64,000 nucleotides of DNA, from the NCBI GenBank assembly GCA_964187785.1, contig OZ076409.1, positions 11,162,001 to 11,226,000 of the forward strand. The letters are read 5' to 3'. The notes beneath the pieces are model-generated. The model saw only the letters and a list, made by a program, of their open reading frames with translations. It was not told the DNA's origin and did not search any database. Below, piece by piece: positions 868 to 53,130 of this stretch. Position 1 is the stretch's first letter. Each line of letters begins with the position of its first letter. Both the position numbers and the translations under genes were made by a program. This DNA comes from Amphiscolops sp. MND2022. Lineage: Eukaryota.

Positions 868-1249
868 CATCGCTTTAACATCGTTTTTTCGTTGTCGTAA
901 GTCTCAAATGGCTCTTCTCACGGTGATCATCGTTGTTACATCTAATATACATGTAGGTAGTATATCAGCGTTGCGGTATTGATTTTACATCTCATTTTCA
1001 TCACGTTTTCCTCGGTTGACCGGGCGACGTCGCGAAAGTTGTTTTCTCATCTTTTTTACATCGTTTGTTATATGCGATTCCTTGCATGTTTGTTACATGT
1101 GATTTTCCTACATAGTTCATCGTTTTTTCATCTTGCCTTTGAATTTTTGCATTTTTGCTAGTTTTTGGTGTAATTCATCGTTTTTGCATCGCAAGTTTGT
1201 CTTGTCCAGTTTTTGCTCATTTTGCTGTATAGTTCATCTTCTTTTCATC
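868..1249. repeat. Array of CATC-N7-CATC motifs at ~60-bp period
   Basis: Sites start at 868, 928, 988, 1048, 1118, 1176 and 1235. Confidence 0.9.
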
Positions 1250-2631
1250 GTATTTTTGAAATGTACAATTTTTGCGTGTATTCGATGTTATTTTGCTATA
1301 ACGTAAGCGGGGTTGCATTTTTCATGTCCGGGGGAAATTTTTATTAGTATTGCGGTGATTCAGAGTGTTTTCTTCATGTATTTTAGCGTTATACGGTTAT
1401 AATCGTTTGTCGTGTTTTTGAATTTGCATGAATTTTATAGTACATGTGGTTTGATCATCGTCGTCATTTTTCTAATTTGTCATCTTCGGAACGTCATAGC
1501 ATGTATTTTTAGTTCGAATTCTGGTGACCGCCGCGTGCGTGGCAGTCGAAAATAAGTTCACTCAGCAGTGGTACTGATAGCCTGTAGGCGTGCAAGGTAC
1601 TAGTGGCTTCAGTCCAAAGCTGGGTGAGTGGAGCTGCTCCGCTCCTTTCAGATGAATTGAATCTCGTAGTTTCGGGCTATATATAGTGTATATGTCATTT
1701 TTTCGGTTGGTTGTTTGCCATTATTCATCGAAATGGGTTTGTCCATTTGACGGTCAGTCCGATCAATTAATATGATTGACAACTACAGTTATGCATGTGT
1801 CCAGTTTGAGACTATCTGTTTCTTGTATTTACATGTATGGATTGTTACATGATGTGTTCTTTTTAAATGGGTTGCCCCATTATTGACATGTCGTTATATG
1901 TTCGGTGTCAGTTTCATGTTTTTTAATTTTATTTTCGTTCATTTGGACAGGGCTTTGTCGTCACAAAGCCCCTACAAAACTAACTGAGAATCCACTAGCC
2001 GCTGGATAACCAACGCAGCAAGCTTCATCCGAATATGGTTGTGAGCTCCCCGCCTCAACTAACCAGCACTCTTTTCAGAGAAATGCCAGCCAGCACGAAG
2101 GAATGTTTTTTAGTTTTTCGATAGGGGTGTTTTGTATGTTATGAGCTGATGTTTACTGGGGGGTGCTCACTCCTTTATTAGTTTTGTAGTTGTTTCGTCA
2201 ATTCTTATATTTTGCATGTAAGTTAGTAGACTTCATGTATTTTCGTTTGTTTGTTTCATTTTTATTCGTCTAGGTTCGGATGGTTTTGGTGTGAATTGCA
2301 TATATTATCTCATTCATTTTTGAACGGTACATGTATATTTCCGTGCGTTGCTCATTTGTATTGCATGTAGTTTGGAATTGTTAATTGCTTTCGTGACGTC
2401 ATTGATTTGGCAGGTCTTTGAACCGTACATGTATTGATCATTTCATTTTTGTGTCGCATAATTCTATTTGCATGATTCGAAATAAGGTCAGCTGTTTTTT
2501 ATCGTTTCGTGGAGTTACATGTTGTTTGAGAATTAGCTGATTTGTTGTGATGTTATGTTGATGGTGTTTCCCATCACAAAGAGGTTTTGGTAAGTCATTT
2601 AATATTTTCGATCTTCTATTTAGACTAAATA

Positions 2632-3095
2632 CATCGTTTTGACATCCTCCAGCGAAGCTAGAGTATTGTGTCAGGTTAACGATAAATTCGGTCACGATTT
2701 GATGGTAGTGTCCATCACAAATTCATCTCGTTATTTGATTTCATGTAATTTATGAATAATTGGATCGAGTTCATCGCTATTTCATCCTCTAGCCGAGCTA
2801 GAGTCTTATGATAGCATGAACGTGAGTGCGTTCGCATTCTGATGGTATTTTCCATCTCAAATGCATCGTTAGTAAATATTGCATGTTGATTGGTCGATTT
2901 TTTGGTTGAGTTCATCACTTTTTCATCTCTCGTGTGTCTGAGCTAAATTTTCGTGTGGTTTCATCCTTTTTTCATCTCAAACTTTTGTGTGGTGTTTTTT
3001 CTGGTTTTTTGATCGTTTTCCATCCGTTTTACATCGCGTTTTGTTTGTATGCGGCTTTCATGTGATTTTTAGTAACTTTTCATCCATTTTGCATC
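2632..3095. repeat. Second array of CATC-N7-CATC motifs
   Basis: Sites start at 2632, 2713, 2772, 2853, 2913, 2962, 3021 and 3081. Confidence 0.9.
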
Positions 3096-3193
3096 TTCAT
3101 GTGTTTTTTAAGTTAAAATTGCATATAATTCGTTCGTTTTTGTGATTTATTCATCCGTAACAGATCTCAGGTTTAAAATGAGACTTTTCTTGG

Positions 3194-6100
3194 CTAAATC
3201 GTTACGTCTATTTTGTTGGTCTTTCTCAGTGCGTTTCTAGCTGAAGTAATCTCATGAATGAGGAAGTCTGGATACGTTTTCGGTGTAGGGTTCTCACGTA
3301 ACCTGTACCTACTTTGATTTGATCTAGACGGTCTAGGACTCATCCTTTCTTCATCTTCATTTTGCGTGTTTGTCTGTTGTGACTGGTTTTCGTGTTGTTC
3401 GTCTCTCAGAGGTACTCTTATCCTACTTTCATCGCGGGGAGGCGGTAGAATAATTTCTTCTCGCGTTCCAAATCTAACTGTAGGTGGTCTAAAGTTGTTG
3501 TGATCAGTTTCTACTTGGTGATAGTCTATTCTCGTGGTTATTTCTGGTGGAATTACTTGTGGAGTGTGTTGTTCTTGTACCCGAGGAATTGTTTCTTCTG
3601 AAGGCTCTTCTTCGACCAAGTCTTGATCTAGATTGTCATTCTCATTCTGATCTACTTCGTCGGTCGTCGGAATATTCGAGTCGAAAATGTCCGTGTCTTC
3701 AACCCTTTCGGTATCTGGGTAGAGATGTTTGGACGCGTTGATGTCGTCAATCGGAAATTCCGGTTTGAACAATCTCAGTCGCATGCGATGTACGCACTGA
3801 GTTTGGTGTGTGCCTACTTTGCGGATGATGTAGTTGCTATCGGATAGCACTTTAATCACCTTGTACGGTCCTTTCCAATGGAAAGTTTTAAACTCTTCTT
3901 TGCTTCTCTGAGAGTCGTACTTAGGGTCTAGTAGGAACACAAATTCATTCACCTTCAGTGGCTGTGCTCGTGCTATTCTCTCATAGTACGTTTTGTATTT
4001 GTGATAGGCGGAAATGATGTTATCTAGATTGTCTCTGAAGATAAAATTCATTTTGTCTAGAATTTCGTTCACGTCCTTGCACTTTGTTTCAGCCGGTTTG
4101 TTTGCGTTTCGGAATTGCAGATCTAGTGAGTTGTATGGTGTTCTTCCGTGGAAAATTTCAGTTGGTGAACATTTCAGTGAATCATGATACGTTGTGTTAT
4201 GGGCCATGATTGCTATGTCGACATAGCGGTCCCATTGTGGTCTGTCTGCGTTTACGCTAATCTTAAGGATCTTTTTCAGTTTCGCGTGCGTTCTCTCCAC
4301 CATGCCTATCGTCTGCGCGTGCTTTATCGTGGCATGGGAGATGTGAATATCAGCCGCTTTCGCGATTTCAGACAGAAGTTCAGCCGTGAACGCCGTGCCC
4401 TTGTCGGTCAGAATGTGTTTGGGCACATACGCGTGTTTTGTGAAGATCGACAGTAGTCCTCTGACTACGGAATGTGTGTCAGGTCTCTTCAGCGGAACGG
4501 CGAACAGGTAGCGCGAAAAAACGTCAACAGCCGTCAGGATGTGTGTAAAACCGTTCGATGCCGGGAGTGGACCAACGATGTCTATTTCCAGCAGGTCTTC
4601 TGGTCCGTCGCACGGGTCGTAGATTTTTTGTAACGGTGGACGTAGTTGCGTTTCTTTTACACTTTTAGACTTCATGCAGTTTTCACATCCGTCAAGGACT
4701 TTTTGAACTTTACAGGCTAAGTTAGGAGAGTAATATCTTTTACGAAGTTCATACAACATTTTCTTTAAACCAGGGTGTCCTTGTACCGGGCTGTTATGTA
4801 GAGTCCTAATTATTTTCAAAATACAGTCTTCAGGAACGACTAACTGCTTGTGAGACTCTAGTCCCGTGTGATCAAAAAACTGTCTGTACAAGACACCGTT
4901 TACAACTTGTAGGCGTTTTCGATTTTTGTACAACTTTTGAAAAAACTGGTCTTGCATATTAACTGGGTGTTGCAAAATTTCAGTACCTTCTAAAAATCTA
5001 ATCATTTTTTGGATAACCCAGTTATTTTTCTGGACCTGAATTAGATCGATCCCCTCGGCGGGGCTAACCTGACTCATTACCGGGTTTGATAATGATACTT
5101 TACGGATGAATTGCGAGAGTTGGATCGGCTCGTCCACGTCTGTGAGGCGGTACGTCAGATGGTTGTCAGTCGCGAAGTCATCTGAGGCCGCAGTTCTCTC
5201 ACAGTTGGTGAACTTCATCCCTTTCCCATCGTCATGAGCCACGTCAGTGCCAGTTGCCAATTTCATCTCTTTGACATCCTTCTGGCGTTTGCATCTGAGT
5301 GGTTCGCTCGCGGGGAAGTAATCAGGCTCGTCTTCCTCCTGTTTTGGTGTACGGGAGGCGATGTCGATCTCGATCCTGTGAATTGGAATAGTATCAGTCA
5401 ATTTTAAATGTACACGGTCTTCAGGTCTAATCTCAAGCCGAGATAAGTAATCCGCTGCGGGATTTTCAACTCCTGGAACATGTGCTAATAGAAAATTGAA
5501 CTGAAGGGTTTGATCGCAAAAATTCCAAAGTGAAGGCGGGATATGCTTCGCCTGGAAAAATCTAGTCAAGGCCTTATTGTCAGTCATAACAATGATGGGT
5601 TTTTTCGCACCCCACAAAATGTGGCCAAATTCATCGAAGGCAAAGTGCATAGCTAGAAACTCTTTGGCATACATTGTTAGAGACATCTGGCCGCCCTGAA
5701 ATTTCTTAGAGCCAAATGCAACAGGGGCGTATGTATGTTTGACTGACGGGTCTGCATAATCCTCGATTAACAACACATAGCCTGCAGCGTGTTCGCTGGC
5801 GTCACACATGATTACCAGTTGTTTATCTGGTAATGGCAATTTCAGAGACACTTTTGTTGCTTTTAACAAACTTTCATTAATTTCAAAAATAGCATCTTTA
5901 TGTTGTTGGTTCAGCTTGAAAGGGACGTCTTTCTTGATGAGTTCCTGTAAACAACAAGTTTTATCAGCTAGACGGGGAATGTAAGATCTGTAAAAGTTCA
6001 CAAAACCAAGATAACGTTGCAACGCTTTCACTGAATTGGGGGGTTTCAACTTCGTTAAATAGTCTGTTACGCGTTTTTCAATGGGAGCAATACCAGTGCT

Positions 6101-8287
6101 AGAAATGGTTTTTCCCAAGTACTCAATTTGTTTTTGTCCAAATTCACATTTACTCATGCTAAGTTTAAGACCAGCTTTGTGCAATTGTTGAAAAACAAGT
6201 TCAAGGTTGGTAATCAATTCTTCGGGTGAGTGTGCTGCAATTCCAATATCGTCAACATATTGGGCACAGCGGTCCGCTTTGACCAAGGGGTCCAAATACT
6301 CACGGATTACTCCTGTAAATGCTGACAAAGAACGATTAAGACCTTGTGCTAGACGTAAAAATGCAAAAGTTCTAGACCCAAAATTAAACGATAACAGTTG
6401 GACAGATTGCTCATCGGCCATTGGAATGCAATGGTAGGCCTGGGAACAATCAAGTTTGCAGAAGTACTTTTTCCCGGCCATGTGTTGGGCAGCGTCAGCA
6501 ATTGTTGTTACGGGATGATTGTGCTCACCGTAATCGTTTTTGATCAGGTGGTTTATTCTTCTCAAGTCAACTAAAATCCTCAATTTACCATTAGGTTTAC
6601 GCTGAGCAAATATCGGGGAAGAGTATTTGCTGTGAGGCAAAGTAGTTATAATCCCGTACTCTTGCATTAGGGCTAACTCCACGAGCAAATCGTCCTTCAA
6701 ATTTGTCGGAGTCGGGAGACTTTGTGAATAAACAGGTTCTTCATGTTGAGGTGTTAACTTAACTTTAAAATCAGTGTTCATGCCAATATCAAAACGATGT
6801 CTAGCAAAAATGGAGTTGTACTTTACCAGCAACTCCTCTACCTGTAACCGTTGAGACGGAGTAAGAAGCGAGTCGTCCCAGTTGAAGTTCTTCAGGAAGT
6901 TCATCCGTTGTTCATCGGATTGGGACGGGTCAAGCTTCTCGAGCTCTCGCAGTGCCAGAATCTCATCATAAATCCGTCGCTCAATTGCGTTGAGTTTGTC
7001 TGGCTCACTGCACGTCTCGGGAGTTGGGTACCACTTGGTTGACTTCATTTCAGGGTTCACGAACAGTTGGTTGATCACTGCTTCGGCTTCATCTGGATAC
7101 TTGGTGATCAAGTTCAAGTGTTCCACTGGCATGGGCGCGATGTTTGCCGCCTGGTGTGGTGTCGGGATGCGAAAGTGTGCCAGAGTGGTGTTGGCTTCAA
7201 GTGTGTACGTGTGGTTGTTTGGGTTGGTGACCTGGATTGTCGTCTTGCCCTCGTCTAGGTCAACCAAAGCTGGAGAAACAAGCAAACACGTCTTTCGCAT
7301 GAATCCAGGTGAGCCCTCAACTGTACCAGTTGTAAGTGAGATGTCCGCGTCACTGTGGACCTGTATCATCACTTGATGGAGAGGAGGGATCACTGTTCTA
7401 GTGCTGGAACACAAATCAATTAAACCAGTTTTGAATCTGTTGTTCTTTTGCTGTCTAACTTGCATGGACATCATGTGATTAGGGAAGTGGACAAGGTGGT
7501 TTTTGATGTCTAAGTTGACTGAGTACTTTTCAAAAAAGGACATTCCAATTAAAATTGTTCCCATTGTTGGAAGGATTAGGAACGTTTCTTCGAATACTTT
7601 TCCAGCAACGTAAAATCTAAGTAAGACTTGCTTACGCACTGGGACTAAGTTCCCGTTTGCTATTTGAATTTTGAAATTCGGAGGGGGGAATTCTTGAAGG
7701 ATGGCTTCTGGATGAGCCGTTGTTATTTTTCGCAGTTCGGCTTCAGACATTGCACTTTGTATTGCGCCTGTGTCTAAAAGTGCGCTGTTTTCGTATTTGT
7801 CAAACTGAAGAGGGACGTACAGCATTTTATCTTTCTTGTTTAAATGTAAAGTGGGACTGAGAACGTGAATTTCTGTTTTAATTGCATGTTTTTTAGTTTT
7901 CGAAACGTTAATACTACTCTGTTTTGCATGTTTTTTAATACTAAGCCGTTTGTCGATTGTTGAGTGTGAAGTCGAGTCGTCGTCTAGATGGTGGGTTTCC
8001 ATCTCTTTGGCATCTTCCACCTGCCTCATGGTGTTTGGTTGCCAGTTCATCGTTTGTTCATCGTTGATTTCAGCGAGTGGAGAAAACCGGCTGCCGTTGA
8101 GTTGACGTGCATTTCTCATCGCTTTTTCATCGTTGGAAAGTCTTCGCTGATAGACGTCGTCAGCTTTTGGTCGTTTGTCCAATGAAGGCTGCCATTTCTT
8201 CATTGGACGGTCGTGTGTAGTCGGTTGAGTCGAAAGTCGTTGGTCGCGCGTTGTGTTTCTAGCGGGTGGAAATCGTGGCGGAATCAA
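3194..8287 (-). CDS. pol: Gypsy Pol polyprotein of element A (protease, RT, RNase H, integrase), expressed by -1 frameshift from gag
   Basis: LLDTGA protease; KLDCSQAYH and YVDD RT; CDAS RNase H; H-x6-GH..CENC zinc finger; IDIVGP/TDKG/ERTH DDE core; WKGPY motif; uninterrupted 1697 codons. Confidence 0.97.
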   Translation of the reverse strand: MIPPRFPPARNTTRDQRLSTQPTTHDRPMKKWQPSLDKRPKADDVYQRRLSNDEKAMRNARQLNGSRFSPLAEINDEQTMNWQPNTMRQVEDAKEMETHHLDDDSTSHSTIDKRLSIKKHAKQSSINVSKTKKHAIKTEIHVLSPTLHLNKKDKMLYVPLQFDKYENSALLDTGAIQSAMSEAELRKITTAHPEAILQEFPPPNFKIQIANGNLVPVRKQVLLRFYVAGKVFEETFLILPTMGTILIGMSFFEKYSVNLDIKNHLVHFPNHMMSMQVRQQKNNRFKTGLIDLCSSTRTVIPPLHQVMIQVHSDADISLTTGTVEGSPGFMRKTCLLVSPALVDLDEGKTTIQVTNPNNHTYTLEANTTLAHFRIPTPHQAANIAPMPVEHLNLITKYPDEAEAVINQLFVNPEMKSTKWYPTPETCSEPDKLNAIERRIYDEILALRELEKLDPSQSDEQRMNFLKNFNWDDSLLTPSQRLQVEELLVKYNSIFARHRFDIGMNTDFKVKLTPQHEEPVYSQSLPTPTNLKDDLLVELALMQEYGIITTLPHSKYSSPIFAQRKPNGKLRILVDLRRINHLIKNDYGEHNHPVTTIADAAQHMAGKKYFCKLDCSQAYHCIPMADEQSVQLLSFNFGSRTFAFLRLAQGLNRSLSAFTGVIREYLDPLVKADRCAQYVDDIGIAAHSPEELITNLELVFQQLHKAGLKLSMSKCEFGQKQIEYLGKTISSTGIAPIEKRVTDYLTKLKPPNSVKALQRYLGFVNFYRSYIPRLADKTCCLQELIKKDVPFKLNQQHKDAIFEINESLLKATKVSLKLPLPDKQLVIMCDASEHAAGYVLLIEDYADPSVKHTYAPVAFGSKKFQGGQMSLTMYAKEFLAMHFAFDEFGHILWGAKKPIIVMTDNKALTRFFQAKHIPPSLWNFCDQTLQFNFLLAHVPGVENPAADYLSRLEIRPEDRVHLKLTDTIPIHRIEIDIASRTPKQEEDEPDYFPASEPLRCKRQKDVKEMKLATGTDVAHDDGKGMKFTNCERTAASDDFATDNHLTYRLTDVDEPIQLSQFIRKVSLSNPVMSQVSPAEGIDLIQVQKNNWVIQKMIRFLEGTEILQHPVNMQDQFFQKLYKNRKRLQVVNGVLYRQFFDHTGLESHKQLVVPEDCILKIIRTLHNSPVQGHPGLKKMLYELRKRYYSPNLACKVQKVLDGCENCMKSKSVKETQLRPPLQKIYDPCDGPEDLLEIDIVGPLPASNGFTHILTAVDVFSRYLFAVPLKRPDTHSVVRGLLSIFTKHAYVPKHILTDKGTAFTAELLSEIAKAADIHISHATIKHAQTIGMVERTHAKLKKILKISVNADRPQWDRYVDIAIMAHNTTYHDSLKCSPTEIFHGRTPYNSLDLQFRNANKPAETKCKDVNEILDKMNFIFRDNLDNIISAYHKYKTYYERIARAQPLKVNEFVFLLDPKYDSQRSKEEFKTFHWKGPYKVIKVLSDSNYIIRKVGTHQTQCVHRMRLRLFKPEFPIDDINASKHLYPDTERVEDTDIFDSNIPTTDEVDQNENDNLDQDLVEEEPSEETIPRVQEQHTPQVIPPEITTRIDYHQVETDHNNFRPPTVRFGTREEIILPPPRDESRIRVPLRDEQHENQSQQTNTQNEDEERMSPRPSRSNQSRYRLRENPTPKTYPDFLIHEITSARNALRKTNKIDVTI

Positions 8288-9789
8288 AAACCCTGATTTA
8301 TGTCTTCATCAGAGTAGGTTTCTTGGTCTTCTTCTTCAGTGACTGCTTGCATAGGATTCATCGGCTTTTGTTGTCGTTTTAAGTCTTGTCTTCTAGTTCT
8401 GTTGTCATCTTGTGAATTCGTTGCGTATGGAATCTTTCCATATGCAGAACTGCTTTCTTTAGGTACACGTCGTCTGCAATCCCTTGCTGAGTGGCCTGTG
8501 TAACCGCAAATCTGGCAAACCAATTTTGGATTGTATTTCGGCTTATCTGGATCGGCTGCTTTCTTCATTGGGATTGCATCCTCCTTCTTTATGCCGTTCG
8601 CTTCGTCTCGTTGTCGGGCGCGACATTCCGTTTTGCGGTGTCCTGTCTTTCCGCAGTAGAAACATTGTCCTTCAAACCGTTTTCGTTCTGTCGGTTGTGT
8701 GGTCGTCGTTGTTGTTGTAGGCTTCGTCGTTGTAATCGTAGGTGGTGCTGAGGAGGTGACCGCGTTGAATGGTTGGATTGCCGTAGGTGGCGCGACGTAC
8801 TGCTGGTACTGGTATTTTCGCATTAGGTAGGTTTTGATTTCCTCTGGGGAGCTCTCTTCTTTGTTTGCCATGGTGAGCTCTTGTTGAATCTCGACTGGCA
8901 GTTTTCCAAACAGGAACATTTTGATTATACTGTCGGCGTCATTGCCGAAGGCTTGTTTGGCAGTCTTCTTGAGATTTTTGAGGAAATCGCCGAATGTTTC
9001 TGTTGTGGGATCATAGCGTGCTTGATCCCATTTGTAACGGGCCACTTCCTTTAGATCCTCTTTTGCAAATTCTTTTCTGAAGAGGTCGAGTACGTCCTTT
9101 AGTGTTGTCATTGGCGTTATCTGGATGGATTGCCAGTATTCTATTGCGTCATCTCTCAAAAGGCTTTGAAAGAAGTGTAGTTTGTTCTCCTCGGTGATTT
9201 TGTTGGCAAGCGGGCTAAGGTGGTTGAGGAGAAGGTGCTCAAATTCGACGAATTTGTCTTTTTGGCCTCTGAAATTTGGCACGTGTGTCTGCAGAAGCTT
9301 CGTGTTGGTGGTTGTGTTTTTGATCCGTTGGGGGATCGTCTCGATTGCATTGAGTAGTCGTTCCTCATTGCTTCTGGGGGTTGATTCTCCTTCGTCTGAA
9401 TCGTCTTCTTGGTAACTTCTGAAGTTGGTGAAGCTGGTTGTCGGGCGGTTGGAGCGGGTTTCTGTAGCTCCTGTCACCATGTCGAACCCAACCGTGTGGG
9501 TCGGCTTTGAAGGACCTTTCGAGGTTGACTGTCGGTTTTCGGTGTCTGTCTTACTTATGACAGCCATCATTAAGTCCTTCAGTTGACTGAACTCATTCTG
9601 TAGTTCGTTTATCTTTCTCTCATAACTCTCTTTTATTTCAGATAACTGAGACGAGATATCGGAAACCTCGTTGCTATCAGAATCATTGGCAGAAGACTGA
9701 GCCATGTCTGGGTCCGTTTGAATGGGTGTTTCTGATGAGGAACTAATAACTCTTCCGCTTCTGAGTTCTGTGCCTAGATCTGAGTTCAT
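8284..9789 (-). CDS. gag: Gag of element A with two CCHC zinc knuckles
   Basis: PNFRG capsid-like start; CFYCGKTGHRKTEC and CQICGYTGHSARDC; overlaps the start of pol. Confidence 0.95.
   Translation of the reverse strand: MNSDLGTELRSGRVISSSSETPIQTDPDMAQSSANDSDSNEVSDISSQLSEIKESYERKINELQNEFSQLKDLMMAVISKTDTENRQSTSKGPSKPTHTVGFDMVTGATETRSNRPTTSFTNFRSYQEDDSDEGESTPRSNEERLLNAIETIPQRIKNTTTNTKLLQTHVPNFRGQKDKFVEFEHLLLNHLSPLANKITEENKLHFFQSLLRDDAIEYWQSIQITPMTTLKDVLDLFRKEFAKEDLKEVARYKWDQARYDPTTETFGDFLKNLKKTAKQAFGNDADSIIKMFLFGKLPVEIQQELTMANKEESSPEEIKTYLMRKYQYQQYVAPPTAIQPFNAVTSSAPPTITTTKPTTTTTTTQPTERKRFEGQCFYCGKTGHRKTECRARQRDEANGIKKEDAIPMKKAADPDKPKYNPKLVCQICGYTGHSARDCRRRVPKESSSAYGKIPYATNSQDDNRTRRQDLKRQQKPMNPMQAVTEEEDQETYSDEDINQGF
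8287..8293 (-). promoter_or_regulatory. -1 ribosomal frameshift slippery site G GGU UUU
   Basis: CAG GGT TTT TGA ends gag; the -1 frame GGG TTT TTG ATT CCG is the pol frame. Confidence 0.85.
9468..9479 (-). promoter_or_regulatory. Primer-binding site TGGTGACAGGAG (tRNA-Leu-like, tentative) of element A
   Basis: Immediately follows the LTR-terminal CA; the same 12-mer occurs in B and C. Confidence 0.85.
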
Positions 9790-11604
9790 AGAGGTGAGAG
9801 AAAAGGAATTATGAGTGAAGACTGGATTCTGGATGGGTTTTCGATGTATTTTACTATTTTGTGCCTTTATTCGAACTCAAATTCACTATTTCTGAACTTG
9901 AGATGTAAATGCGATGAGTTTTACAGTAAGACAAGGATACTAGTAAAAATGAGAAATAGTTAACGAGGATTAAGCAGAATTCATCCAAATTTCATCGAAC
10001 AGATATCGATCACGGAATTACTCAGAGTTGTGAAGGTAGTGTTTTACGATGAATAAGAGATATGTTTTTCTAGTTCAAATCTGTCGTAACTCGTCCAACT
10101 GGACAGTAGCTAATCGCAATTTCGGTCTGAGTAATCTCTAATGGCGGTCCAAAATACAGCAGTTCACGTGTCTTTTCAGGCTGGTAAGACGCTAAATCTC
10201 TTACCAGCCGACTCTTATTGGCTATTGCCAGTTGGTGCTAATTGGTAAGTCACGTGACCGGTGTTGTGAACTGCCGCAAGTTGGCCAAACCACATGGTAC
10301 ATCTACATATGCTAATTATGACTAATCATCACTTTACAATGTCGCAATTGCCTGCACACAGTGTCATGGTTTCTATAGCAACTCAAATCATTCAATAATG
10401 TACTAATTTCAAGTCAAAACAGAGTAAACTGCATCACAGGATGAGAAAACGATGTTTTTCCAACTAATTCTAGCACTAAAATCAATACTTCAAAAGCAAA
10501 GATGGAAACGCGATGAATTCGTCAGAATATTTGCTGATTTTCAAGTCTAGTTTAGCTCTGGATGAAAATGCGATGAATGGTGGTCTTTTAGCTCAAAAAT
10601 CAACACGATATGAACTGGCGATGATAAAAGGATGAACTCGTCTTCAAAATGAATGATTTCCAGCACAATTTAAATCAACGATGGTAAAAGGATGAACTCT
10701 CCTCGAAAATAACTAATTTCCAGCACTAGTGAAATTGACGATGAATTCAGGATGAATTCAGCCAATAAAACAGGTGAAACAGCTAATCCTGCAGTGAAGA
10801 CAAATATACGATGACTTTAGGATGAATACATTCAATAAAACAGCAAAATCTAATGAATGAAATTCCAACGATGGGTTTAGGATGAACTCAACTGAAAATT
10901 CGGCTAATTCTAACGTAAGTCGAACTAGCGATGAATTTACGACGAACTAGTGATAAGTTAATCTAATAAAACAGATATCCAGCACTTCACTCTTTTTTAG
11001 GATGAATTAAGGATGTACTTTCTCATTTCTTGCAGTTTCTGTTCAGGGCGATGAAATATAGATGTGTTATGCTCTTTTTAAGAAATGAGAAGCACATTGA
11101 AGGTTAATAATCACAAAACGACGATGAGTATAGGATGGCTTTCATGCATTTTAAAGTCCCGTGAGATCCGCTGATGGATCACTAAATGAAATCAAATAAA
11201 TGTCTCAATTTTGTTCACCCGCAATCTTGGCGATGTGATTGCGATGAACTTTGATAATTTAGCACTGTAATTTCACTAGTAAATAAAGTTAAAAGATCAC
11301 TAAATCCGCTGATGGATTAGTGATGAACTTTTCCCGAAATTCGTCACGACTACAAGTCCTGAGGCGAGGGAGCTAGTAGAAGTTACAGATTCCATTATTT
11401 CTACATCTCTCGGTCCAGTCTGACCGGAAAACTTCTCTCCCTTATCGTGACAGACCAATATTGAATAAGATAGCACATTAAAAGCTATTGGCCAGATCAT
11501 TTGTGCGGACACCGGAATTAGAGCGCTCAGTATTAAGTAAATATATATAGCTCAAACTCAGGGGGGATAGGGATTAAAGTACAAGTAACGTAGGGTTGCT
11601 CACA
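9480..11604 (-). repeat. 5' LTR of element A (outer boundary tentative)
   Basis: Inner end fixed by the PBS; outer end from an imperfect terminal inverted repeat. The partner LTR is outside the window. Confidence 0.55.
10440..11325. repeat. Array of GATG-N7-GATG motifs at ~60-bp period in LTR A
   Basis: Sites at 10440, 10501, 10561, 10620, 10680, 10740, 10810, 10870, (10930 variant), 11001, 11050, 11123, 11232 and 11311; also 9902 and reversed at 9982. Confidence 0.9.
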
Positions 11605-11687
11605 ACCATGGCTCTTATTATATGACATCATATTGCCCATATCTAAGTACATAAGACATAATATTTACATTACAAATATTTAGTAGA

Positions 11688-12149
11688 TTATATTTCCATC
11701 ATGCTGGCATGACAGGGGGTGTCCACACTTGGACCCCTTTCGTGCTCTGGGGGGGACATAGGTGATTCCAAGACGGGCATTATTGTGTTACAGAGATCTA
11801 TGCGCTTCTTCTCGAATTTCCTTGGCGGGGCATAGCACATTTCCCTATCGAAGTATTTAAGGCCCAGTTTCGGTGCCACCCCTTCTTCCATTTGAGACGT
11901 ACTTGGTCCAGCTCTCGCTTCGTCTTCGGGTTCACCCATAGTCATTATTCTGCCCCCGATTAACATTGGGCTAGAAGTAACTTCCTTTTCAATCCGGGCT
12001 ATCAGTTGCTCGGTGTCAGTCGAACAATAGGTTTCCCAGTCCGAGGACTCATCTTCACTACTGGATATGTAGATTACTGATTTATCAGAGTTATCAGAAT
12101 CGTATTCTCCAAAGTCAAACAATTTTCTTGAGAGGTTAAACTTGCTCAT
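11688..12149 (-). CDS. Small acidic accessory protein with SIM-like motif (element B)
   Basis: 153-aa ATG-started ORF containing VIYISSSEDESSD; a positional counterpart in C contains VIDISSDEE. Confidence 0.55.
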   Translation of the reverse strand: MSKFNLSRKLFDFGEYDSDNSDKSVIYISSSEDESSDWETYCSTDTEQLIARIEKEVTSSPMLIGGRIMTMGEPEDEARAGPSTSQMEEGVAPKLGLKYFDREMCYAPPRKFEKKRIDLCNTIMPVLESPMSPPEHERGPSVDTPCHASMMEI

Positions 12150-13271
12150 TATGAGTTTTTTGGCGATTTTTGAAGCTGGTAAGGCGACTGATTGCTGAAT
12201 AATTTAAGACAGAATGAATATACCTAAATTCCGTCGCAAGCCGAGTTAGGACGTTTTTCCGAAGTTTCCAATTTGGCGGGTAAAACTTCGGTTGGTCGTC
12301 CTGATCCGTCGTAAACTTTCCTGAATGGAATTCCATAACTGATCGGCGTCCTTTGATATTTCAGTGTTTACCCCTCATCAGCATCATTACTATGAGAGGC
12401 GTGAATGACGCTTGAGTTATTAATATCAACTACACCAGTCTCAAGTGGGTAATTAACGGGTCGCTTGTAAACAATTAACAGCATGCGTCGCAAAGTTTTC
12501 TCAAAATGGCTTCAGCCAATCAGAACTAAGCCTTGATAAATTGTAAATTGAATAATAAAATGGCGGAAAATAATAAAACTAAATAATCCCAAAATGGCGG
12601 AAATTTTAACTAAAGGGTAACTAAGGTAATTGGACGAAACGTCGAAACGAAACAAGGCAAACAGCCATAACCGGCCATTAACTAAGTAAGCTGCAGATAA
12701 TGAAGATCTTTGTACATTTCGCTGGCAGACTCCATGTACAGAATAGATATATAAATAATCAAATAACATTAGTCTAGTAAATCTTCTTCAGCCACGAACT
12801 CCAACTATCCAATTCCTTTATTCAATTTTAAATTCCAGTTGAATTCCAGTTACTTTTCACATTCACGTTTACAAATACGCTGTCTAATCATCATCTTCCG
12901 GCCTTCACGACGCCATAACTGTTGGACTTCCACACTCCAAAGCCTTCTTGGCCTTTCCTCCACCAATTCCGATCTTTCTCAAATCCCCACTAGTTGACGG
13001 CCTGATTCGGACCAGTTCTCAGCAGTCCAATTCTCCAAGAGCATGTCTTCTGACTCAGGTTGGTTTGGGTTTCCATTTTAGAACTAATTTAACTTGATCA
13101 AGGTCAAATTTGTTCACTAAATACTTCCTGCTTCCATCACTAAACACGTGACGAGCACGTTTCATTCAAATTTGTTCACTAAATACTTCCTGCTTCCATC
13201 ACTAAACACGTGACGAGCACGTTTCATTCAAATTTGTCATACACTTCCGGAAGGTTTCTAATCGCGGTAAA
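12150..13271. promoter_or_regulatory. Candidate divergent promoter between the acidic ORF and the antisense BED gene (B)
   Basis: Head-to-head ORFs; AAAATGGCGG (YY1-like) twice near 12557 and 12591; CAGCCAATCAG; CACGTGAC twice; ACTTCCGG just before the ATG at 13272. Confidence 0.45.
13104..13237. repeat. 62-bp tandem duplication
   Basis: Units start at 13104, 13166 and (partial) 13228; each full unit has CACGT-N6-CACGT. Confidence 0.9.
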
Positions 13272-16200
13272 ATGGATTCGTATCAAGGAAGTACACCGCT
13301 AAATTTCATTCCCTTTCGTTTAGAGATTCCGTCAAAAGAGAATGCTTCTGCACCAACCTTACCCCAAGTCAGCAGTCCTGTTAATGCCGAGGACTTGACA
13401 ACACTGATAGAGGAACACAAGCGAGGCGAGGCTGGTACTTCTGAGCCTCAACCCGAAGCAAAACATGGTGGCTCAGCCGGTAGCCAAGACAGCGACACCG
13501 ATGTTACTGTTTACGCTGATTCTATGGTCCAACGGATGGAGCAAACTCAATCCCCTGCCACGAAAGATAGTAGCCTTCCACCATCTGCCTCATCTCAAGG
13601 CCAAGAACTGACCTCTGGCACTCAGGAATTGATGCCCACTGTACTCGAAGAGCGTAGATCGAGTACTCCTATCCAGTCTGAGGAGGAGGGGAGACAAGAT
13701 GTAAATCTGTCAGCTTTGGAATCTGCCTTAGAAGTTGTCATGACCTCTGGGTCTCAGTTCCCTGAATTAAGGGATAGGGAAGATCCAAACCAGTCAGAAG
13801 CAAGTGGCATTCAATCTAAGACTGACGAAGACAATGCCTCAACAGTCTGTGATGTGCCCGCGCTCCCAGGAGGCGACCCCAAAGTACGCTTCGCGGTAAG
13901 TCGCAGTGAGGAAGAAGAGTCCACAGAGGAGTCGAGCCGACTTGTCCCGGTGGAATTGTACGGGTATCCTCCTTTTACCCCGGAAACCGAAACCGAGTGT
14001 GAAGGGGACACCAGCTCTGAAAAGCAGCCCTTGAGGCCAGGTAACACGTGCGGGACCAGTGGAAGCCTTAGCCAGGACAGGCTTCCGGACCTTTCAGGAC
14101 GTAGCAGGGCCATCCTAAAGGAATATTTTGAGGAAGCATCCCCGATTAGACTCCCTGTCGGACACACTACTGTCGCCTTCACTGAGCCCCAGGTGTACCA
14201 TCTTCTGCGTACACTCACAGATGAGACTCTCCGTAGGTCCTTCAGTACCATGGAAAGAATGGTGCTTGATGCTGTACGTGGATCTCCAACCGCCCTGCCA
14301 TCACGAACGTCTCACTTTCAGCTTAGGCGACGACCGCAAACCCCCGGACCTAGGCCTCAGAGTGATTCTGAAATCGACAGCGATCATCCTGGATCGGCTT
14401 CAGACCGACCAGGATCAAGTGCAGAGGACACCGGTTGGTCGTCCTTTTACGAAGAGACCGACAGTGCCACTGAGATGGACTTAATATCGAAGTCCTTCAA
14501 GCAAACTCCTGTAATTCCTCAAAGCAGAGAGATCCGGGAAGAAACAGGAGACACCCAGCAACAGATAGAACTCGGGGCAGAAGGGTACAGCAGCCAGGAC
14601 ACTACCCTGCATGAGATGCGCAAACAGGCGCAGAAAAACTTGGACGTGGGACCTTCCAAATCCAAAAAGAAGAAAGACAATAAGAGACTTTCCCGGAGGG
14701 GTGTTCCCATGCGAGAAGAATTTTTCTCAAAAATAGGGTGGACGAGGTCATTCATATCCGGTCCGGGTGACCCTCTTCACAATCCCCATATGGTCTGGTG
14801 CCATATTTGTAAGAAAAACTTTTCTATAAAGTCAAAAGGACCTTATGAGATCTTAAGACATCACCGGACAGACCGACATTTGAGACGCGACCAAAGATGG
14901 CGGTACGAACATCTACGCAGCGTAGATCCTGTTAGCGGCAAGGTGCAACATCGGGTCAGGGGCGCCAATGGCAAAATCCTGACAAAAATTGAGCTGGCCA
15001 GTCAACTGCACAAGTTCATCAACGTGGAATTAGTGGACATCGGGGAGAGGTTCCCCTTCTATGAAGATTTCTTGCGCGGAACCACTACTGCCTTAGTCAC
15101 CCAAGAAGCGCGTGTTAAAACTCAACTCTGTCTGGTGGGCGACTTCATAAAGACGATAGGAGACCTCACTGTCTTGAGGAACTTATGGTCCAGGATGGGA
15201 GCCTACACCAACCACCAGGCTACAGTTTGCGATTTCGACTGGGGCGAAGAGCGCATAAATGTAAGGGTATTTCCGTTCTCCTGTTCATAGTCTTGAGTAT
15301 TTCTTGTCCTAAGTAGTTTTGTTTCCTTTTCAGGCCATATTCCAGCATTTTTCACAAGTGCTTTGAGTGACATTGCCGAACACGTCACTACCCAACAATG
15401 CTTCCCCGTAGAGTTCGAGACTGTAGGAATTTATCGCTACATGACTGTCAAATTCTGGAAGGGCCATGAACTATGTCGAGTTCTCATCTGTCGAAGTTCC
15501 CTTCCCGCAACTGATGTGACGGGTGAACTTGGATCTCTGGCCCGGTTCTTGTCGGCAGTATCGACCCAACCTGATGTGGTGGCGTGTTCCGGTTGCCATG
15601 TTGACCTGGTGAAGACGATTGACCAGTCGGACTACTTCCCGCAAGGGGTTCAAAGCTGTTTCCGCTTCGAGCAGCTATCATTGCCCACCCTGATGCATAA
15701 GTCCAAGTACTCTGTCTTTGGCCAGATAGACTTCTTCTCTGTGCTCCAGGCTCTGATGGTGTCCTTAGGTGGTTCCCTCACAGAAGAATGGGCGCTGCGT
15801 AGCCCAGAACTCACTAAAGTAAGTACACCCTTTTCGTCTTTCTTCCTCTTAGTCGTAGAATGAGTAGTGTTGGTACAGTGTGATACAGTCCTCAACATTG
15901 AAATGGGTTTTTACAGGCAGTTACCAGTTGCAAGCTTGACGTCCGGACACTTCCAATTCTCTGTACAGAGCTTGTGAAGGAATGGAGACTCATCCTCCGG
16001 TACTTGACTGAACATGCCCCTATACAAGGAGGTCAAGGGGTTCGCAGCAGGGTTAGACCTTATCTTATCCCTTTAATAGTACTGTCAGGTGGTTCCAGAG
16101 GGGGTGGGTTTTGGCTTCTTTTCTTGCTATGAGACTGACAAACACTCACATATGTGTTCTGCTTAAGGTACAGAGCTTCGAATGGTCCCTGATCTGTGAC

Positions 16201-17662
16201 GAGTTTTTCGTTGTCAAGCTGGAGTTCTTTAACAGGCTCACGAGTGACTGTAAGTATCTCACTTTAAGGTGAAAAGCCACGGTTTTGTTCCACTTTAGAC
16301 ACCAGACTTGTGTTTCCAGACGTGTCCAGTTTCCCTGTGAACCTCCAGCATAGACGTGATGCATCCTTTTACCTTTGTGGGGAAGTCTGTCGGTTTCTGA
16401 GCCTGCTCTGTTCCCGCGTCTATACCCCTGATACTGCCCCCTTGGCGAATGCTTGGTTCTTGTTGCTACGCTTCCAGATTAGTGAGGCCACCTTCCTGGA
16501 TGAAGAGGAGTATTTGGTGCGACTGAAGCTCACCAACAAGGTGTCGTCTGCTAGCAAAGCAAAGGCCGAAGGGATGCACTTTGGTAAGAAGTCGGAGCGC
16601 CCAGCAATCCTGGCAACTACTGAGACTGTAAAGTCTGATTTCGTCAAGGACAGTCAGCAGTACGTGCAGTACGTGCAGTACCTTATTAATGAAGTTCTTC
16701 GGCAGACTGGGCTAACCACCAACATCGTGAAAGGGATGGCTACTTTTGACCCTTTCATACTATTCAAGCGCCCTATGGACGTGGCCCTACGCCACTTCGA
16801 CATCCTGTACAGTACCTTTTCCCTCCGCTCTTGGGTATCCAGTACTAATGAGTCCTTGTGCCGGGATCAGTACATGCAGCTTCTCGATCATCTGCGTACA
16901 GCTTATAGCCCAGATTTCGATATTACCAGCGTCTCCTGTGATTTAATTGAGTTCTTGTCTGAGCTGGAGTTCCTTCGAGACCGTAGCTGTTTGTTCTACC
17001 TGTTCAAATTGTGTTGTTTGTGTGCCACCACTGTCAGTCCTACATACCCTGATGTTACTTTCGTGACAGTTTCCACCGCTGGACGCCATAGCAGGTTAGC
17101 TGACGTCATTCTTCCTGTTCAAAGTTATATGTCTAACGTGCGAGATGCAGTTGCTTTCTGTAAAGATGACAGAAATCTTGCCAGATTCATTGACTTCACT
17201 TCTTCTTTCGAGCGTTCAGCATTTGCTCCTGATTATGATCCTTGGAGCTACGTGGACACTTTTGGCCGTTCAAAAATTTACAAGTCACTGCTTGCTTCTT
17301 ATCGTGTGGCTCTTTCTTCCCCTCAAAAGGCTCTGGTCCGGATTGCGCCTGATGATGTACATTCTGTAGCTGACACATCCGCCGTGAAGGCCACTTCCAG
17401 CACTAAACGGAGGAAGATGGAACGTCGCGCATCCCGTTCATCTTCATCATCTGCCGTCGGGGCTGACGAACCTGGTTCCTCTAAATCTAACTGTACATAT
17501 GTATGTGTGTTCTTTCAAATTGTAAACTTTGTTAATTTCTTTGCCGATTTGCTTATTTATTCTTTGTTGTTTGTATCTCTCGATCCCTGTATTTATTCTT
17601 TTGTAAGGGATCCTTTGAATGCCCCACTATTTATTTCGAGGAAAAAGAATAAAAGGGGCTAG
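13272..17662 (+). CDS. Antisense multi-exon accessory gene of element B: disordered N-terminus, BED zinc finger, hAT-transposase-like body
   Basis: Exons 13272-15260, 15334-15818, 15917-16051, 16168-16249 and 16320-<=17662, with GT..AG introns in compatible phases. BED-like WCHICKKNFSIKSKGPYEILRHHRTDRH at 14796-14879. One apparent 1-nt deletion in the T-run near 15350. Confidence 0.75.
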
Positions 17663-28687: not shown

Positions 28688-29243
28688 GGGCGCCTCTATA
28701 ACTTGTTGACCACGGCCTGGGGCAATGTGGGATCTCTCTAGCAATAAGTACGGGCTGCTTTCGTGCTCTTCTGATTCTCGCGGAGGTAAATGAGTTCCCT
28801 CTTCCGGCAGTGCAGTAGTAGTCTTCTGTCATTGATAGCCCGTGAGTCTCTTCTATTTCTTTGATGGAAGGCTCGTCTAGGTCATTCAACTTCTCTATCT
28901 TTGACGGGGAGACGTATTCTTTTTCGTTCCTGATGTCAGCAAGTACTGGGGCACGGGTCAGTTCAGGCATCTCCCGGGACGAATCCGGTTCTTCGTAGTA
29001 GTCTTCAGAGTTTTCTTTCTGGTGTGACTCAACGACAAAAGCTTCTTCCGTATGAGATTCGAATGTCGATACTGATTCTTGAGTTGAATTAAGGTCCGCC
29101 TCGCTTCCCCGCCATACTTCCACGGAAGAATCACTTAAGTTGAGTCACCCCACCATGTTTAAGGGTAGGGTTTTGATCGGCGTACTGTATCTATGATTTT
29201 CTTCGTCCGAAGAGATGTCGATGACAAGGGCATAGTTGTCCAT
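28593..29243 (-). pseudogene. Small acidic accessory ORF with SIM-like motif (element C), one in-frame TGA
   Basis: ATG at 29243 gives MDNYALVIDISSDEENH, in frame with the listed ORF 28593-29123; TGA at 29145-29147; the ORF runs into the 3' LTR. Confidence 0.55.
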
Positions 29244-29798
29244 TTTTCTTTTAGCGATTTTTGTCTAAGTCTTGAAGAAATAATTCTGGACAAACTTTTC
29301 TTTACGTTTATTGTACGGCAAATGAGAAGGTCAATTTTCTTCTATTCATGTTTTTCCTGTATTCCTATTGGCTGATATTTTTCTTCTTATTTCGGTTCGT
29401 TTTATCTTCGGAAAGCGTTTCACTTCCATCTGCGCTGTGATTGGCTGAACCGAATAAACTGAAGTTTCTAATTTTGAACCTCGTCATGTCGTCATCAATT
29501 TCTTTCCGGTGATGATCCGTGTGACGTCATAATTTAGAAAATGATCTGTTTTCCTTTTAGGACATTCAAATAGTCAGATTTATTTTTTGGTTTTTTTTGT
29601 TTTGGGAGTGATATGCTCTCGTCAGTGCTTTATCAGGCTTATGTGAAATAAGATGACAGGTGTATTTTCCTTTTCTTGGTCGTGAATAAATGATTTTGGA
29701 CTCTTTCCTTATTTTTATCTTTCGGAGCGTTCTCGTTGCTCTTCTCTTGTTTGACTTGTTGTTTTCTTTTAGATTGCTTCTGAAGATTTTGCTCCCTT
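29244..29798. promoter_or_regulatory. Candidate divergent promoter in element C
   Basis: Head-to-head ORFs; ATTGGCTGA (CCAAT) twice; GTGACGTCAT (CRE-like); TTTCCGGT. Confidence 0.4.
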
Positions 29799-32565: not shown

Positions 32566-32742
32566 TGCTGATCGGGGTGTTTATGATACCCTCAATAGAT
32601 CATCTAGTAGTTGAGGTTGTCCTGTTCAGACTCTGCAATTTTTTAATTTTCAGGCATTTGTTACTCTGCTCTTGTTATTATTGTATTGTAGTTTAGAAAT
32701 TAACGTTACCATCCCGGTTCGGCGTGGTCTACTTGATCATTT

Positions 32743-49896: not shown

Positions 49897-49914
49897 TAAT
49901 TTTTCATTTGTTCA

Positions 49915-52900: not shown

Positions 52901-53130
52901 GAAACAAAAAAATTATATTGAAAGAGCCTGGTTCCAGTAAGTTTCTTCATGGATTCTTCTTTTATACCTGTGTGAGAAGTTGGAATTACTTACCCACTGA
53001 ACTGAGAACAATCAAATACAAGAGAGAAAAATGGAAGAAACTTATCAAAGAACACATGATACAACTTTACAAAGATTGTCCAACTTTTTATAAAAACCAT
53101 ATTTGGCACTGCTTCCAACTTCTCCAATAG
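49915..53130 (+). pseudogene. CR1/L2-group LINE ORF2 (2A peptide, APE endonuclease, RT) with a single nonsense codon
   Basis: ITETWL, MGDYNID, IDYI and TDH (APE); NYRPI, DLSKAFD, GVPQG and YADD (RT); both ORFs in the same frame around TAA 51193-51195. Confidence 0.93.
50149..50172 (+). other. 2A (StopGo) ribosome-skipping motif DIERNPGP
   Basis: LLLLLSGDIERNPGP matches D[V/I]ExNPGP directly before the APE domain. Confidence 0.9.

Follow-up and report, generated by a model that had tools for sequence, protein, structure and literature searches.

VANDAL21 of Arabidopsis, together with its protein VANC21, is an anti-silencing system for which both binding and hypomethylation have been measured, according to the relevant sections of the original report (Hosaka et al. 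2017, PMC5735166). Among Retand elements, which belong to the Tat lineage of plant Ty3/gypsy retrotransposons, about half carry tandem-repeat arrays between pol and the 3' LTR, as summarized in excerpts of a recent survey (Vicient 2025, PMC11963269). Of the known systems, VANC and Retand are the closest to the retrotransposon described here, element A, which lies in a 64,000-nucleotide stretch of Amphiscolops sp. MND2022 DNA (the window). Regular site arrays also occur elsewhere. The 5' leader of Drosophila gypsy contains about a dozen regularly spaced sites, in one short array after the primer-binding site, for Su(Hw), a host protein with many zinc fingers. HTLV-1 encodes Tax, which works with three 21-bp LTR repeats through host CREB instead of direct DNA binding, as well as the antisense gene HBZ, while in the hAT transposons Ac and Hermes, subterminal repeat arrays are bound by the BED finger of the transposase.

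Element A is a Ty3/gypsy (Metaviridae) LTR retrotransposon of 19,298 bp on the minus strand. Its placement follows from the domain order of pol, the CCHC knuckle of gag, direct TG...CA LTRs, a primer-binding site, a purine tract (GGGGAG) ahead of the 3' LTR, and a short target duplication, with CCCCC on both flanks. The LTRs start with TGTCA and end with CGACA, are 99.776% identical over 2235 bp in self-BLAST, and have identical boundaries in 12 of 12 LTR loci. The segment 10440-11325 is recognized as LTR because a second copy sits 17,063 bp leftward, outside the window. Pfam matches in pol include RVT_1 (569-734), RT_RNaseH (826-930), Integrase_H2C2 (1157-1215) and rve (1235-1325). Between pol and the 3' LTR lies a region of about 8.5 kb with four conserved antisense ORFs and five site clusters. 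The main parts of the element are as follows.

9480 to 11714, minus strand: 5' LTR, TG...CA, 2,235 bp
9462 to 9479, minus strand: primer-binding site TGGTGACAGGAGCTACAG, also given as TGGTGACAGG..., directly after the 5' LTR
8284 to 9876, minus strand: gag ORF, 530 aa stop to stop, zf-CCHC, frame open from within the LTR
3194 to 8305, minus strand: pol ORF, 1703 aa, domain order RT, RNase H, integrase as in Ty3/gypsy
-471 to 542 (1 to 542 in the window), plus strand: last antisense accessory ORF, 337 aa
-2218 to -1508, outside the window: zinc-finger ORF, antisense to gag-pol
-7583 to -5349, outside the window: 3' LTR, the second copy in self-BLAST, 2,235 bp

The element is studded with paired GATG sites, at which a DNA-binding protein most likely docks. 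In the window, GATG-N7-GATG occurs 45 times on both strands, 40 of these within 868-11325, against a chance expectation of 2.10 (sd 1.31, largest 5, in 100 dinucleotide shuffles), an excess stronger than the initial annotation had described. Among spacings N0 to N25, only N7 is enriched, and single GATG words outside pairs show no enrichment. In three element regions, the counts at k=7 (plus, minus) are (1,15), (2,7) and (14,1), while every other k in 0-25 gives 0 or 1, which bears out the predicted spike. One copy of element A holds 54 distinct sites, or 70 with both LTRs counted, and genome-wide there are 100,399 matches compared with 26,360 for the reversed control pattern. The sites in the window are distributed as follows.

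10440 to 11325, plus strand (antisense to gag-pol): LTR array, 13 perfect sites and the variant GATGAATTTACGACG at 10930
9832 to 9996: three more LTR sites just upstream of the gag ORF, at 9832 (plus), 9902 (plus) and 9982 (minus)
8117, 8048, 8000, 6902, 5264, 5216 and 3341, sense strand: pol sites
7700, antisense: pol site
2632 to 3095, minus strand: post-pol array 1, 8 sites on the sense strand of element A
2549, plus strand: site in opposite orientation beside post-pol array 1
868 to 1249, minus strand: post-pol array 2, 7 sites on the sense strand, spacings 58-60 and 70

Every site group listed in the initial annotation (868-1249, 2632-3095, 10440-11325 with its variant, 9902 and 9982) is present, and the arrays flanking gag-pol do run in opposite orientations, with the LTR array on the plus strand and the post-pol arrays on the minus strand. 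Its total of thirty sites was too low by ten (9832, 2549 and eight in the gag/pol ORFs), and those eight make the restriction to non-coding parts not quite right. The placement of the arrays between the accessory gene and pol is accurate inside the window and incomplete beyond it, since element A extends 7.6 kb past the left edge, a stretch with further arrays and the zinc-finger ORF. In the consensus, a(c)GATGAAAWA-rs-GATGAA, the word GATGAA appears twice in the same direction, 11 bp apart, around an AT-rich centre, and this arrangement suits a pair of DNA-binding modules spaced by one helical turn. Spacings between same-strand neighbours fall into classes of 48-49, 58-61, 69-73 and 79-84 bp (mainly 59-61, 70 and 49 in the LTR array), and Rayleigh R reaches 0.70 at periods of about 10.2-12, versus a null maximum of 0.56 in 2000 simulations. 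The proposed binding on one helical face would depend on the helical repeat: 60 bp corresponds to 5.7 turns at 10.5 bp per turn, and the sites would be in phase only at about 10.0-10.2.

Conservation of the sites was assessed in ten diverged subfamilies. Their zinc-finger ORFs share 67-94% identity with that of element A, and in every 20 kb they hold 29-71 sites. N7 was the enriched spacing in every subfamily locus with GATG/CATC pairs among the five top-ranked entries. Sites of element A are perfectly kept at 241 of 277 aligned positions, compared with 65, 100 and 93 of 277 for masks shifted by 20, 30 and 40 bp, so the sites are under selection. By array, retention is 100 of 117 positions in the LTR array (9 subfamilies), 73 of 80 in post-pol array 1 (10 subfamilies) and 29 of 35 in post-pol array 2 (5 subfamilies). 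Column identity in the diverged subfamilies is 0.89-0.96 for half-sites, 0.75-0.92 for N7 and 0.66-0.84 between sites, and half-site columns differ from between-site columns with Mann-Whitney p from 2e-14 to 2e-4. As judged from these alignments, both the GATG pairs and their 11-bp spacing are under selection, as had been suggested.

Two other gypsy families in the window, B and C, whose pol is 41-47% identical to that of element A, have the same architecture with different half-sites, TCCG-N7-TCCG and GGCC-N6-GGCC, respectively. Family B carries its sites in 58-bp tandem units in both LTRs, along with 10 dispersed sites, and its spacing spectrum gives 10 at N7 and at most 2 at any other k. 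In family C the number per element is only about 5: the window copy has 4 sites in 59-bp pairs and 1 further site, and another copy has 5, with N6 as the sole enriched spacing (N5 and N11 occur once each); many of its copies retain open frames of 676-694 aa. The half-site motif is thus family-specific, as anticipated, within a common layout, and this combination is simply explained by homologous binders that share an architecture and have diverged in specificity. Between A and C, the finger sequence and the half-site both differ.

The accessory proteins of element A are encoded antisense to gag-pol, and the initial annotation was right to credit them to the element itself. Between subfamilies, the four antisense ORFs give dN/dS of 0.08-0.41 where dS is estimable, compared with 0.54-0.85 for an overlapping alternative frame; for the last of them (337 aa), dN/dS is 0.14-0.29 in 3 of 6 subfamily comparisons with estimable dS. 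By this measure, the post-pol antisense ORFs are under purifying selection. One of them contains a CX2C-X16-H-X5-H zinc finger that is nearly invariant in the A clade, and the encoded protein consists of an acidic Ser/Pro-rich N-terminal part, the single finger and then a helical domain. In the A clade no part of the ORF is better conserved than the finger segment, with 44 of 60 residues invariant versus 21 of 60 and 26 of 66 downstream. The conservation of this segment parallels the invariance of the GATG half-site.

The finger domain is common to A and C in alignment, and a profile built from that alignment recovers both by construction. For the domain, 420 representative relatives were obtained at E<=0.001. 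The family consensus W..F...FYCQIC-X16-H-X5-H, with aromatic residues ahead of the finger, has the BED-type signature CX2C...HX3-5H. A Pfam scan with the A finger as query returned no match; among 27 members of the finger alignment, weak matches were obtained to zf-C2H2_ZN292 (8 of 27) and the KIN17 finger (2 of 27), and none to zf-BED (PF02892) at E<=0.1. Foldseek gave BED matches only at E>2, including ZBED1 (2ct5, E 2.2, TM 0.44) and the Hermes BED domain (8eb5, E 4.5). The top solved structures in VIA-align, all with low scores (Z 3.8-5.2), were U1-type fingers of RNA-binding proteins, namely TUT4 (Z 5.2, rmsd 4.0 over 70 residues) and TUT1 (Z 3.8, rmsd 1.6 over 45 residues). Language-model Atlas look-alikes with hAT/BED families score 0.87-0.92 and serve as leads only. 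No Pfam domain, and thus no transposase domain, was found in the longer relatives among the matches listed (120 of 202), or in the ORFs downstream of the finger. The predicted model of ORF2 is poor (pLDDT 52).

These observations suggest that the GATG pairs are cis-acting sites for a sequence-specific protein, which is possibly the zinc-finger protein encoded on the opposite strand of element A. A probability of about 45% is given to the reading in which element A's own antisense-encoded protein reads docking sites on the element's DNA. A pair of recognition modules would each engage one of two adjacent major grooves, one helical turn apart, and neighbouring complexes would lie about 60 bp apart, in steps of about 10-12 bp. 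One zinc finger reads only about 3-4 bp, so pairing or oligomerization must be assumed, and the protein would bind as a pair or oligomer. With sites over the LTRs, the post-pol region and parts of gag-pol, the bound protein would mark the whole family. Its effect on copies of that family would be that of a transactivator or anti-silencing factor, with a copy-number repressor as the alternative.

A host factor as binder is a serious rival, albeit a less likely one. The sites would then be arrays for a host transcription or chromatin factor, that is, enhancer or insulator modules amplified in each family by tandem duplication, like retroviral U3 enhancer repeats or the Su(Hw) sites of gypsy, and the accessory protein would do something else. 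Conservation and exclusive spacing show that something binds, not what, and different host factors per family would likewise yield family-specific motifs. The densest array lies in the LTR, family B has as its array a tandem repeat with a 58-bp unit, young and of the enhancer-repeat type, and the copy of family B in the window, which is old and broken, has arrays and no recognizable finger. Some family C sites contain GGCCAAT, which is presumably CCAAT-box-like and could bind a host factor. However, three distant families would need three factors, all using half-site direct repeats 10-11 bp apart with phasing of about 59 bp. It would also be unusual for an enhancer that the sites extend across 19 kb, face both ways and reach into coding sequence and the space between convergent genes, and the genome-wide excess of about 74,000 over the control matches the size expected from element copies alone, as inferred from copy numbers rather than counted.

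Two further readings dispense with a DNA-reading factor. A structural or chromatin role is improbable: phased AT-rich centres together with a lattice of 11 bp would curve the DNA or set nucleosome positions, or else the pattern would result from slippage of 11-bp and 60-bp units. The N7 centre is A/T at 47-51 of 54 sites, spacing classes are about 10-12 bp apart, Tandem Repeats Finder reports two-copy repeats of 11 bp at several sites and a single 60-bp repeat, and the family B array arose by recent tandem duplication. Yet the information resides in GATG and not in the AT-rich spacer, as the column identities of half-sites and N7 indicate, GATG is not enriched as a single word, and repeat dynamics alone cannot hold 241 of 277 sites perfect amid diverging flanks. 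Very improbable is an RNA motif, GAUGAA-N5-GAUGAA, serving as a packaging, export or stability signal read by the Gag nucleocapsid or the accessory finger. The U1-type folds nearest to the finger are consistent with it, as is the sense-strand position of all 15 post-pol sites and of 7 among the 8 in pol, which would place them in genomic RNA, but the structural Z scores are low, and the 13-site LTR array and several other groups lie on the opposite strand, so no single transcript carries all sites as GAUG. That the sites face both ways and also lie within coding sequence speaks for recognition of DNA rather than of RNA.

If the protein of element A does read the sites, LTR retrotransposons join complex retroviruses and VANDAL in being able to carry self-recognition specific to a family, which would help to explain how many related families stay active side by side in one genome. 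The wider proposal, tentatively advanced, is a clade of giant Ty3/gypsy elements in which an antisense single-finger protein co-evolves with paired-half-site arrays (GATG-N7-GATG, GGCC-N6-GGCC, TCCG-N7-TCCG), so that the protein of each family would recognize no copies but those of that family, activating them or protecting them against silencing. Such a system would be a first among LTR retrotransposons, convergent with VANC in DNA transposons. It is easy to test, with a motif that is short, precisely defined and strict in its spacing (N7, never N6 or N8), and the two sister families provide natural specificity swaps. Even if a host factor is the binder, the arrays would offer a large natural set of about 100,000 genomic sites with one paired motif and a clean annotation marker for this transposable element clade.

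Compared with known systems, element A resembles gypsy in having a regular site array for a zinc-finger protein (putative in A) in a Ty3/gypsy element; gypsy is not known to have the paired half-site geometry or an accessory gene. Like complex retroviruses, element A has additional genes, one of them read in antisense from the side of the 3' LTR, and repeats in its own LTR (response elements in HTLV-1), whereas HTLV-1 has three repeats against about fifty sites in A and is not known to share homology with it. As in hAT elements, many copies of a 4-6-bp motif in both orientations flank the gene of a single-finger protein, and in A the antisense gene lies between oppositely oriented arrays; hAT arrays, however, are in transposons, while those of A are in a retrotransposon, with no transposase domain in the ORFs and relatives scanned. 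Retand elements, in the excerpted account, share the long region between pol and the 3' LTR with antisense ORFs predicted to be DNA-binding, and A likewise combines such a region with antisense ORFs and repeat arrays (Vicient 2025, PMC11963269). They differ in LTR length (315-1194 bp versus 2,235 bp in A), in the length of this region (2.9-6.6 kb versus about 8.5 kb) and in TRP28 (PF04195), carried by Retand antisense ORFs (PMC11963269) and absent at E<=1 from five antisense ORFs of A, two of C and two of B. Unlike in Retand, the arrays of A also occupy the LTR and gag-pol, and its conserved paired motif has no counterpart in the excerpts describing Retand (PMC11963269). VANDAL, as portrayed in the sections cited, is a Mutator-like DNA transposon rather than a Ty3/gypsy LTR retrotransposon, and the VANC motif is a single 9-mer, YAGTATTAY, rather than paired half-sites at fixed spacing (PMC5735166). 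As in A, dense arrays of a short, family-specific motif lie within the element, arise through tandem-repeat formation and differ in motif among related families, and the candidate binder is encoded by the element itself (PMC5735166). No sequence relation between VANC and the proteins of A came up in the searches described here. Element A thus bears high-density, family-specific motif arrays of the VANC type, and the parallel with VANC would be one of functional analogy only.

Element A, the Ty3/gypsy LTR retrotransposon on the minus strand of the window, belongs to an abundant family and inserted recently. Its 9480-11714 segment recurs beyond the left edge of the window, offset by 17,063 bp, with 99.776% identity over 2,235 bp, and this offset between the LTR copies gives an element length of 19,298 bp. 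The LTR ends are TG...CA, a primer-binding site (PBS) TGGTGACAGG... follows the 5' LTR, GGGGAG precedes the 3' LTR, and CCCCC is found on both flanks. A genome search with the LTR, in which 40 matches at 96-100% were scored out of 1,906 candidates, showed that the scored matches are mostly paired about 17.06 kb apart. The distance from pol to the 3' LTR is about 8.5 kb. The gag frame is open from within the 5' LTR and in frame across the PBS both in A (9480-9876) and in element B, another gypsy element of the window (38990-39482); in A an ATG is created exactly at the LTR/PBS junction.

Element A and its GATG-N7-GATG sites (CATC-N7-CATC on the other strand)
Minus strand: gag (zf-CCHC) and pol (RT, RNase H and integrase, in Ty3/gypsy order), two long ORFs
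868-1249, minus strand: post-pol array, 7 sites
2632-3095, minus strand: post-pol array, 8 sites
9902, plus strand, and 9982, minus strand: single sites
10440-11325, plus strand: LTR array, 13 perfect sites and the variant GATGAATTTACGACG at 10930
2549, 9832 and eight positions within gag-pol: ten sites absent from the initial annotation
Full copy, each LTR: 16 sites
Full copy, gag-pol: 9 sites (7 sense, 2 antisense)
Full copy, post-pol: two arrays, 8 and 7 sites
Full copy, near the accessory ORFs: three more clusters and scattered sites, both orientations

On both strands of the window, GATG-N7-GATG occurs 45 times against 2.10 expected from 100 dinucleotide-preserving shuffles (sd 1.31, largest 5), and 40 of these matches fall inside 868-11325. 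Every group of sites named in the initial annotation was recovered; the variant at 10930 bridges a 131-bp gap in the LTR array. The same annotation had confined about thirty phased sites to the non-coding parts of the element, which is correct for the arrays and fails for the eight sites within gag-pol. The predicted spike at a spacing of seven was borne out when GATG-Nk-GATG was counted for k=0-25: enrichment appears at k=7 alone in three element regions, with plus and minus counts of (1,15), (2,7) and (14,1), while at other k the count never exceeds 1, and GATG on its own, outside pairs, shows no enrichment. A full copy of element A carries 70 perfect sites (31 sense, 39 antisense), or 54 with one LTR counted. 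Genome-wide there are 100,399 matches, compared with 26,360 for the reversed pattern.

The consensus over the 54 sites, a(c)GATG-AAAWA-rs-GATG-AA, repeats GATGAA directly at 11 bp around an A/T-rich centre, the three central positions being A or T in 47-51 of the sites; little information lies more than 3 bp outward on either side. Spacings between same-strand neighbours cluster at 48-49, 58-61, 69-73 and 79-84 bp, giving a Rayleigh R of 0.70 at periods of about 10.2-12, a value above any reached by 2,000 random sets (at most 0.56). Placement on one helical face, as had been proposed, holds only for a helical repeat near 10.0-10.2, since 60 bp amounts to 5.7 turns at 10.5 bp per turn. The spacing classes may reflect either conservation of helical phase or indels in 11-bp units.

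Conservation of the sites was assessed at two depths. Among 12 LTR copies of A that are 97.5-100% alike, 4 of 128 half-site positions vary, versus 39 of 715 non-site positions of the array; copies so alike leave this comparison underpowered, and diverged subfamilies were therefore used instead. These were found by a genome search with the A zinc-finger ORF (67-94% protein identity), and 20 kb was fetched around each of ten loci, which hold 53, 51, 45, 54, 71, 53, 61, 29, 53 and 55 sites. N7 is the enriched spacing wherever GATG/CATC pairs entered a locus's five top-ranked entries, the expectation being about 1 per strand; for subfamily A94 those five entries are other tandem repeats, and for A68 they include CATC-N7 only. 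In alignments of four arrays, from which loci covering less than 80% of the array were excluded (leaving 9, 5, 10 and 9 subfamilies), pairwise identity of the sequences other than A averages 0.89-0.96 in half-sites, 0.75-0.92 in the N7 and 0.66-0.84 between sites (half-site versus inter-site, Mann-Whitney p 2e-14 to 2e-4). At aligned columns 241 of 277 A sites are perfect, versus 65, 100 and 93 for the 8-column mask shifted by 20, 30 and 40 bp. An aligner may favour matching GATG words in a repetitive array, and the alignment-free counts are independent of that. With half-sites the most conserved columns, these comparisons uphold the proposed selection on the paired sites, which are conserved functional elements. 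The subfamily loci (L016-L035) are themselves mosaics: one combines an LTR array 93.5% like that of A with a zinc-finger ORF just 74-75% identical, suggesting that subfamilies have recombined, and locus A72 carries two LTR arrays in tandem.

The layout extends to two distant gypsy families, B and C, whose pol proteins are 41% and 47% identical to that of A.

Elements B and C and other features of the window
About 12-26 kb: element C
13206-15290: C antisense ORF, 694 aa, intact, ending in the zinc-finger domain that it has in common with A
16268-17662: second C antisense ORF
17970, 25356, 25415, 25561 and 25620: GGCC-N6-GGCC sites of C, the last four forming two pairs 59 bp apart
26313-28686 and 38990-41319: LTRs of element B, about 95.5-96% alike
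27671-27975 and 40362-40608: arrays in the B LTRs, with six and five tandem copies of a near-identical 58-bp unit
42162-42260 and 44371-44440: runs of the 11-bp palindromic unit CAAGATCTTGG
42811-43500: 229-aa ORF without a Pfam match, in the 1.4-kb stretch flanked by the CAAGATCTTGG runs
49900-53130, plus strand: non-LTR retrotransposon with an endonuclease ORF and an RVT_1 ORF

Element B (26313-41319) is an older, broken Ty3/gypsy element. Each 58-bp unit of its LTRs holds gcTCCGTAAGCgcTCCGTAcg (TCCG-N7-TCCG), and ten additional such sites are dispersed through the element; outside the tandem units the N7 count is 10, and no other k exceeds 2. In C the enrichment is at N6 only, with a single pair each at N5 and N11, and a second C copy (L036) also has five GGCC-N6-GGCC sites; some C sites finish in CCAAT-like GGCCAAT. 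From these spacing counts, the three families have in common direct half-sites paired at 10-11 bp and phasing at about 59 bp, with a differing half-site in each. A perfect 62-bp tandem duplication (13104-13237, 2.2 copies) spans the start of the 694-aa frame of C. Contig 12 of G000 carries, at about 14.846-14.875 Mb, three zinc-finger domains of the C type at intervals of exactly 14,465-14,467 bp, a regularity suggestive of elements in tandem that have LTRs in common.

After pol, element A has no long sense ORF; the opposite strand carries four ORFs of 230, 236, 180 and 337 aa, none matching Pfam. Between subfamilies these ORFs have dN/dS values of 0.08-0.41 in all comparisons with unsaturated dS. 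An overlapping 98-aa alternative frame gives 0.54-0.85, and a 'FKLCCL' likeness seen in it was dropped on that ground. A domain with the consensus W..F...FYCQIC-X16-H-X5-H is common to the 236-aa ORF and to the last 190 aa of the 694-aa ORF of C, and many C copies retain open frames of 676-694 aa. Searches returned 420 representative relatives of this domain at E<=0.001, and 84 still pass at E<=1e-30; among the relatives listed there is no name and no Pfam domain (for Pfam, the 120 listed of 202 longer relatives). The predicted structure (pLDDT 81.8) has a zinc-finger core, a hairpin and helices. Foldseek with this model gave nothing at E<=0.001, its weak matches being ZBED1 (E 2.2) and the Hermes BED domain (E 4.5), and the top ranks of VIA-align are U1-type fingers, also weak (TUT4, Z 5.2; TUT1, Z 3.8). 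Across 27 aligned members, weak Pfam matches are to zf-C2H2_ZN292 (8), the KIN17 finger (2) and zf-BED (0). The accessory protein has one C2H2-like finger, whose subtype is uncertain. A hAT origin of the gene, to which Atlas look-alikes alone pointed, was not borne out by the zf-BED count or by the listed relatives, which lack Pfam domains.

No other part of the ORF is as conserved within the A clade as the finger segment, with 44 of 60 residues invariant there, versus 21 of 60 and 26 of 66 in the stretches further downstream. Between families similarity is low: tblastn of the A antisense ORFs against B and C gave nothing at E<=1e-3, and blastp gave weak matches between the A and C fingers (E 0.001) and between the last B ORF and the second C ORF (E 4e-6), whose predicted fold has a mean pLDDT of 52. 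The old, broken B copy of the window contains a Ser/Pro-rich ORF and a 233-aa ORF belonging to a large family; no recognisable finger was found in this copy, and an Atlas look-up of the 233-aa ORF gave no usable match.

In the simplest reading, a protein would dock on two GATGAA half-sites one turn apart, and this binder may be the finger protein encoded antisense in element A itself. We tentatively give this a probability of about 45%, because three families have the same layout and each its own half-site, the accessory gene has been conserved, motif and finger are invariant together, and the sites occur in both orientations across the whole element. Binding by a host factor is a serious rival, somewhat less probable than this. 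The sites might alternatively serve a structural or repeat-dynamics role, which we consider improbable, and an RNA signal would be more surprising still. A reading of the sites as mini-ORFs (ATG-N9-TGA) was set aside by inference, since the arrays occupy both strands and positions beyond pol.

Element A has further likenesses to gypsy/Su(Hw), to HTLV Tax/HBZ and to hAT subterminal repeats, and a 2026 preprint reportedly deals with transposases that activate their own copies. In the openly accessible full texts searched, no LTR retrotransposon was found described that combines paired phased motif arrays with a zinc-finger gene in antisense. The TRP28 domain was looked for in the antisense ORFs of A, B and C and was not found. 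In structure the plant Retand lineage, in which antisense TRP28 ORFs and tandem arrays follow pol (PMC11963269), is the nearest analogue. In function the VANC/VANDAL21 system comes closest (PMC5735166).
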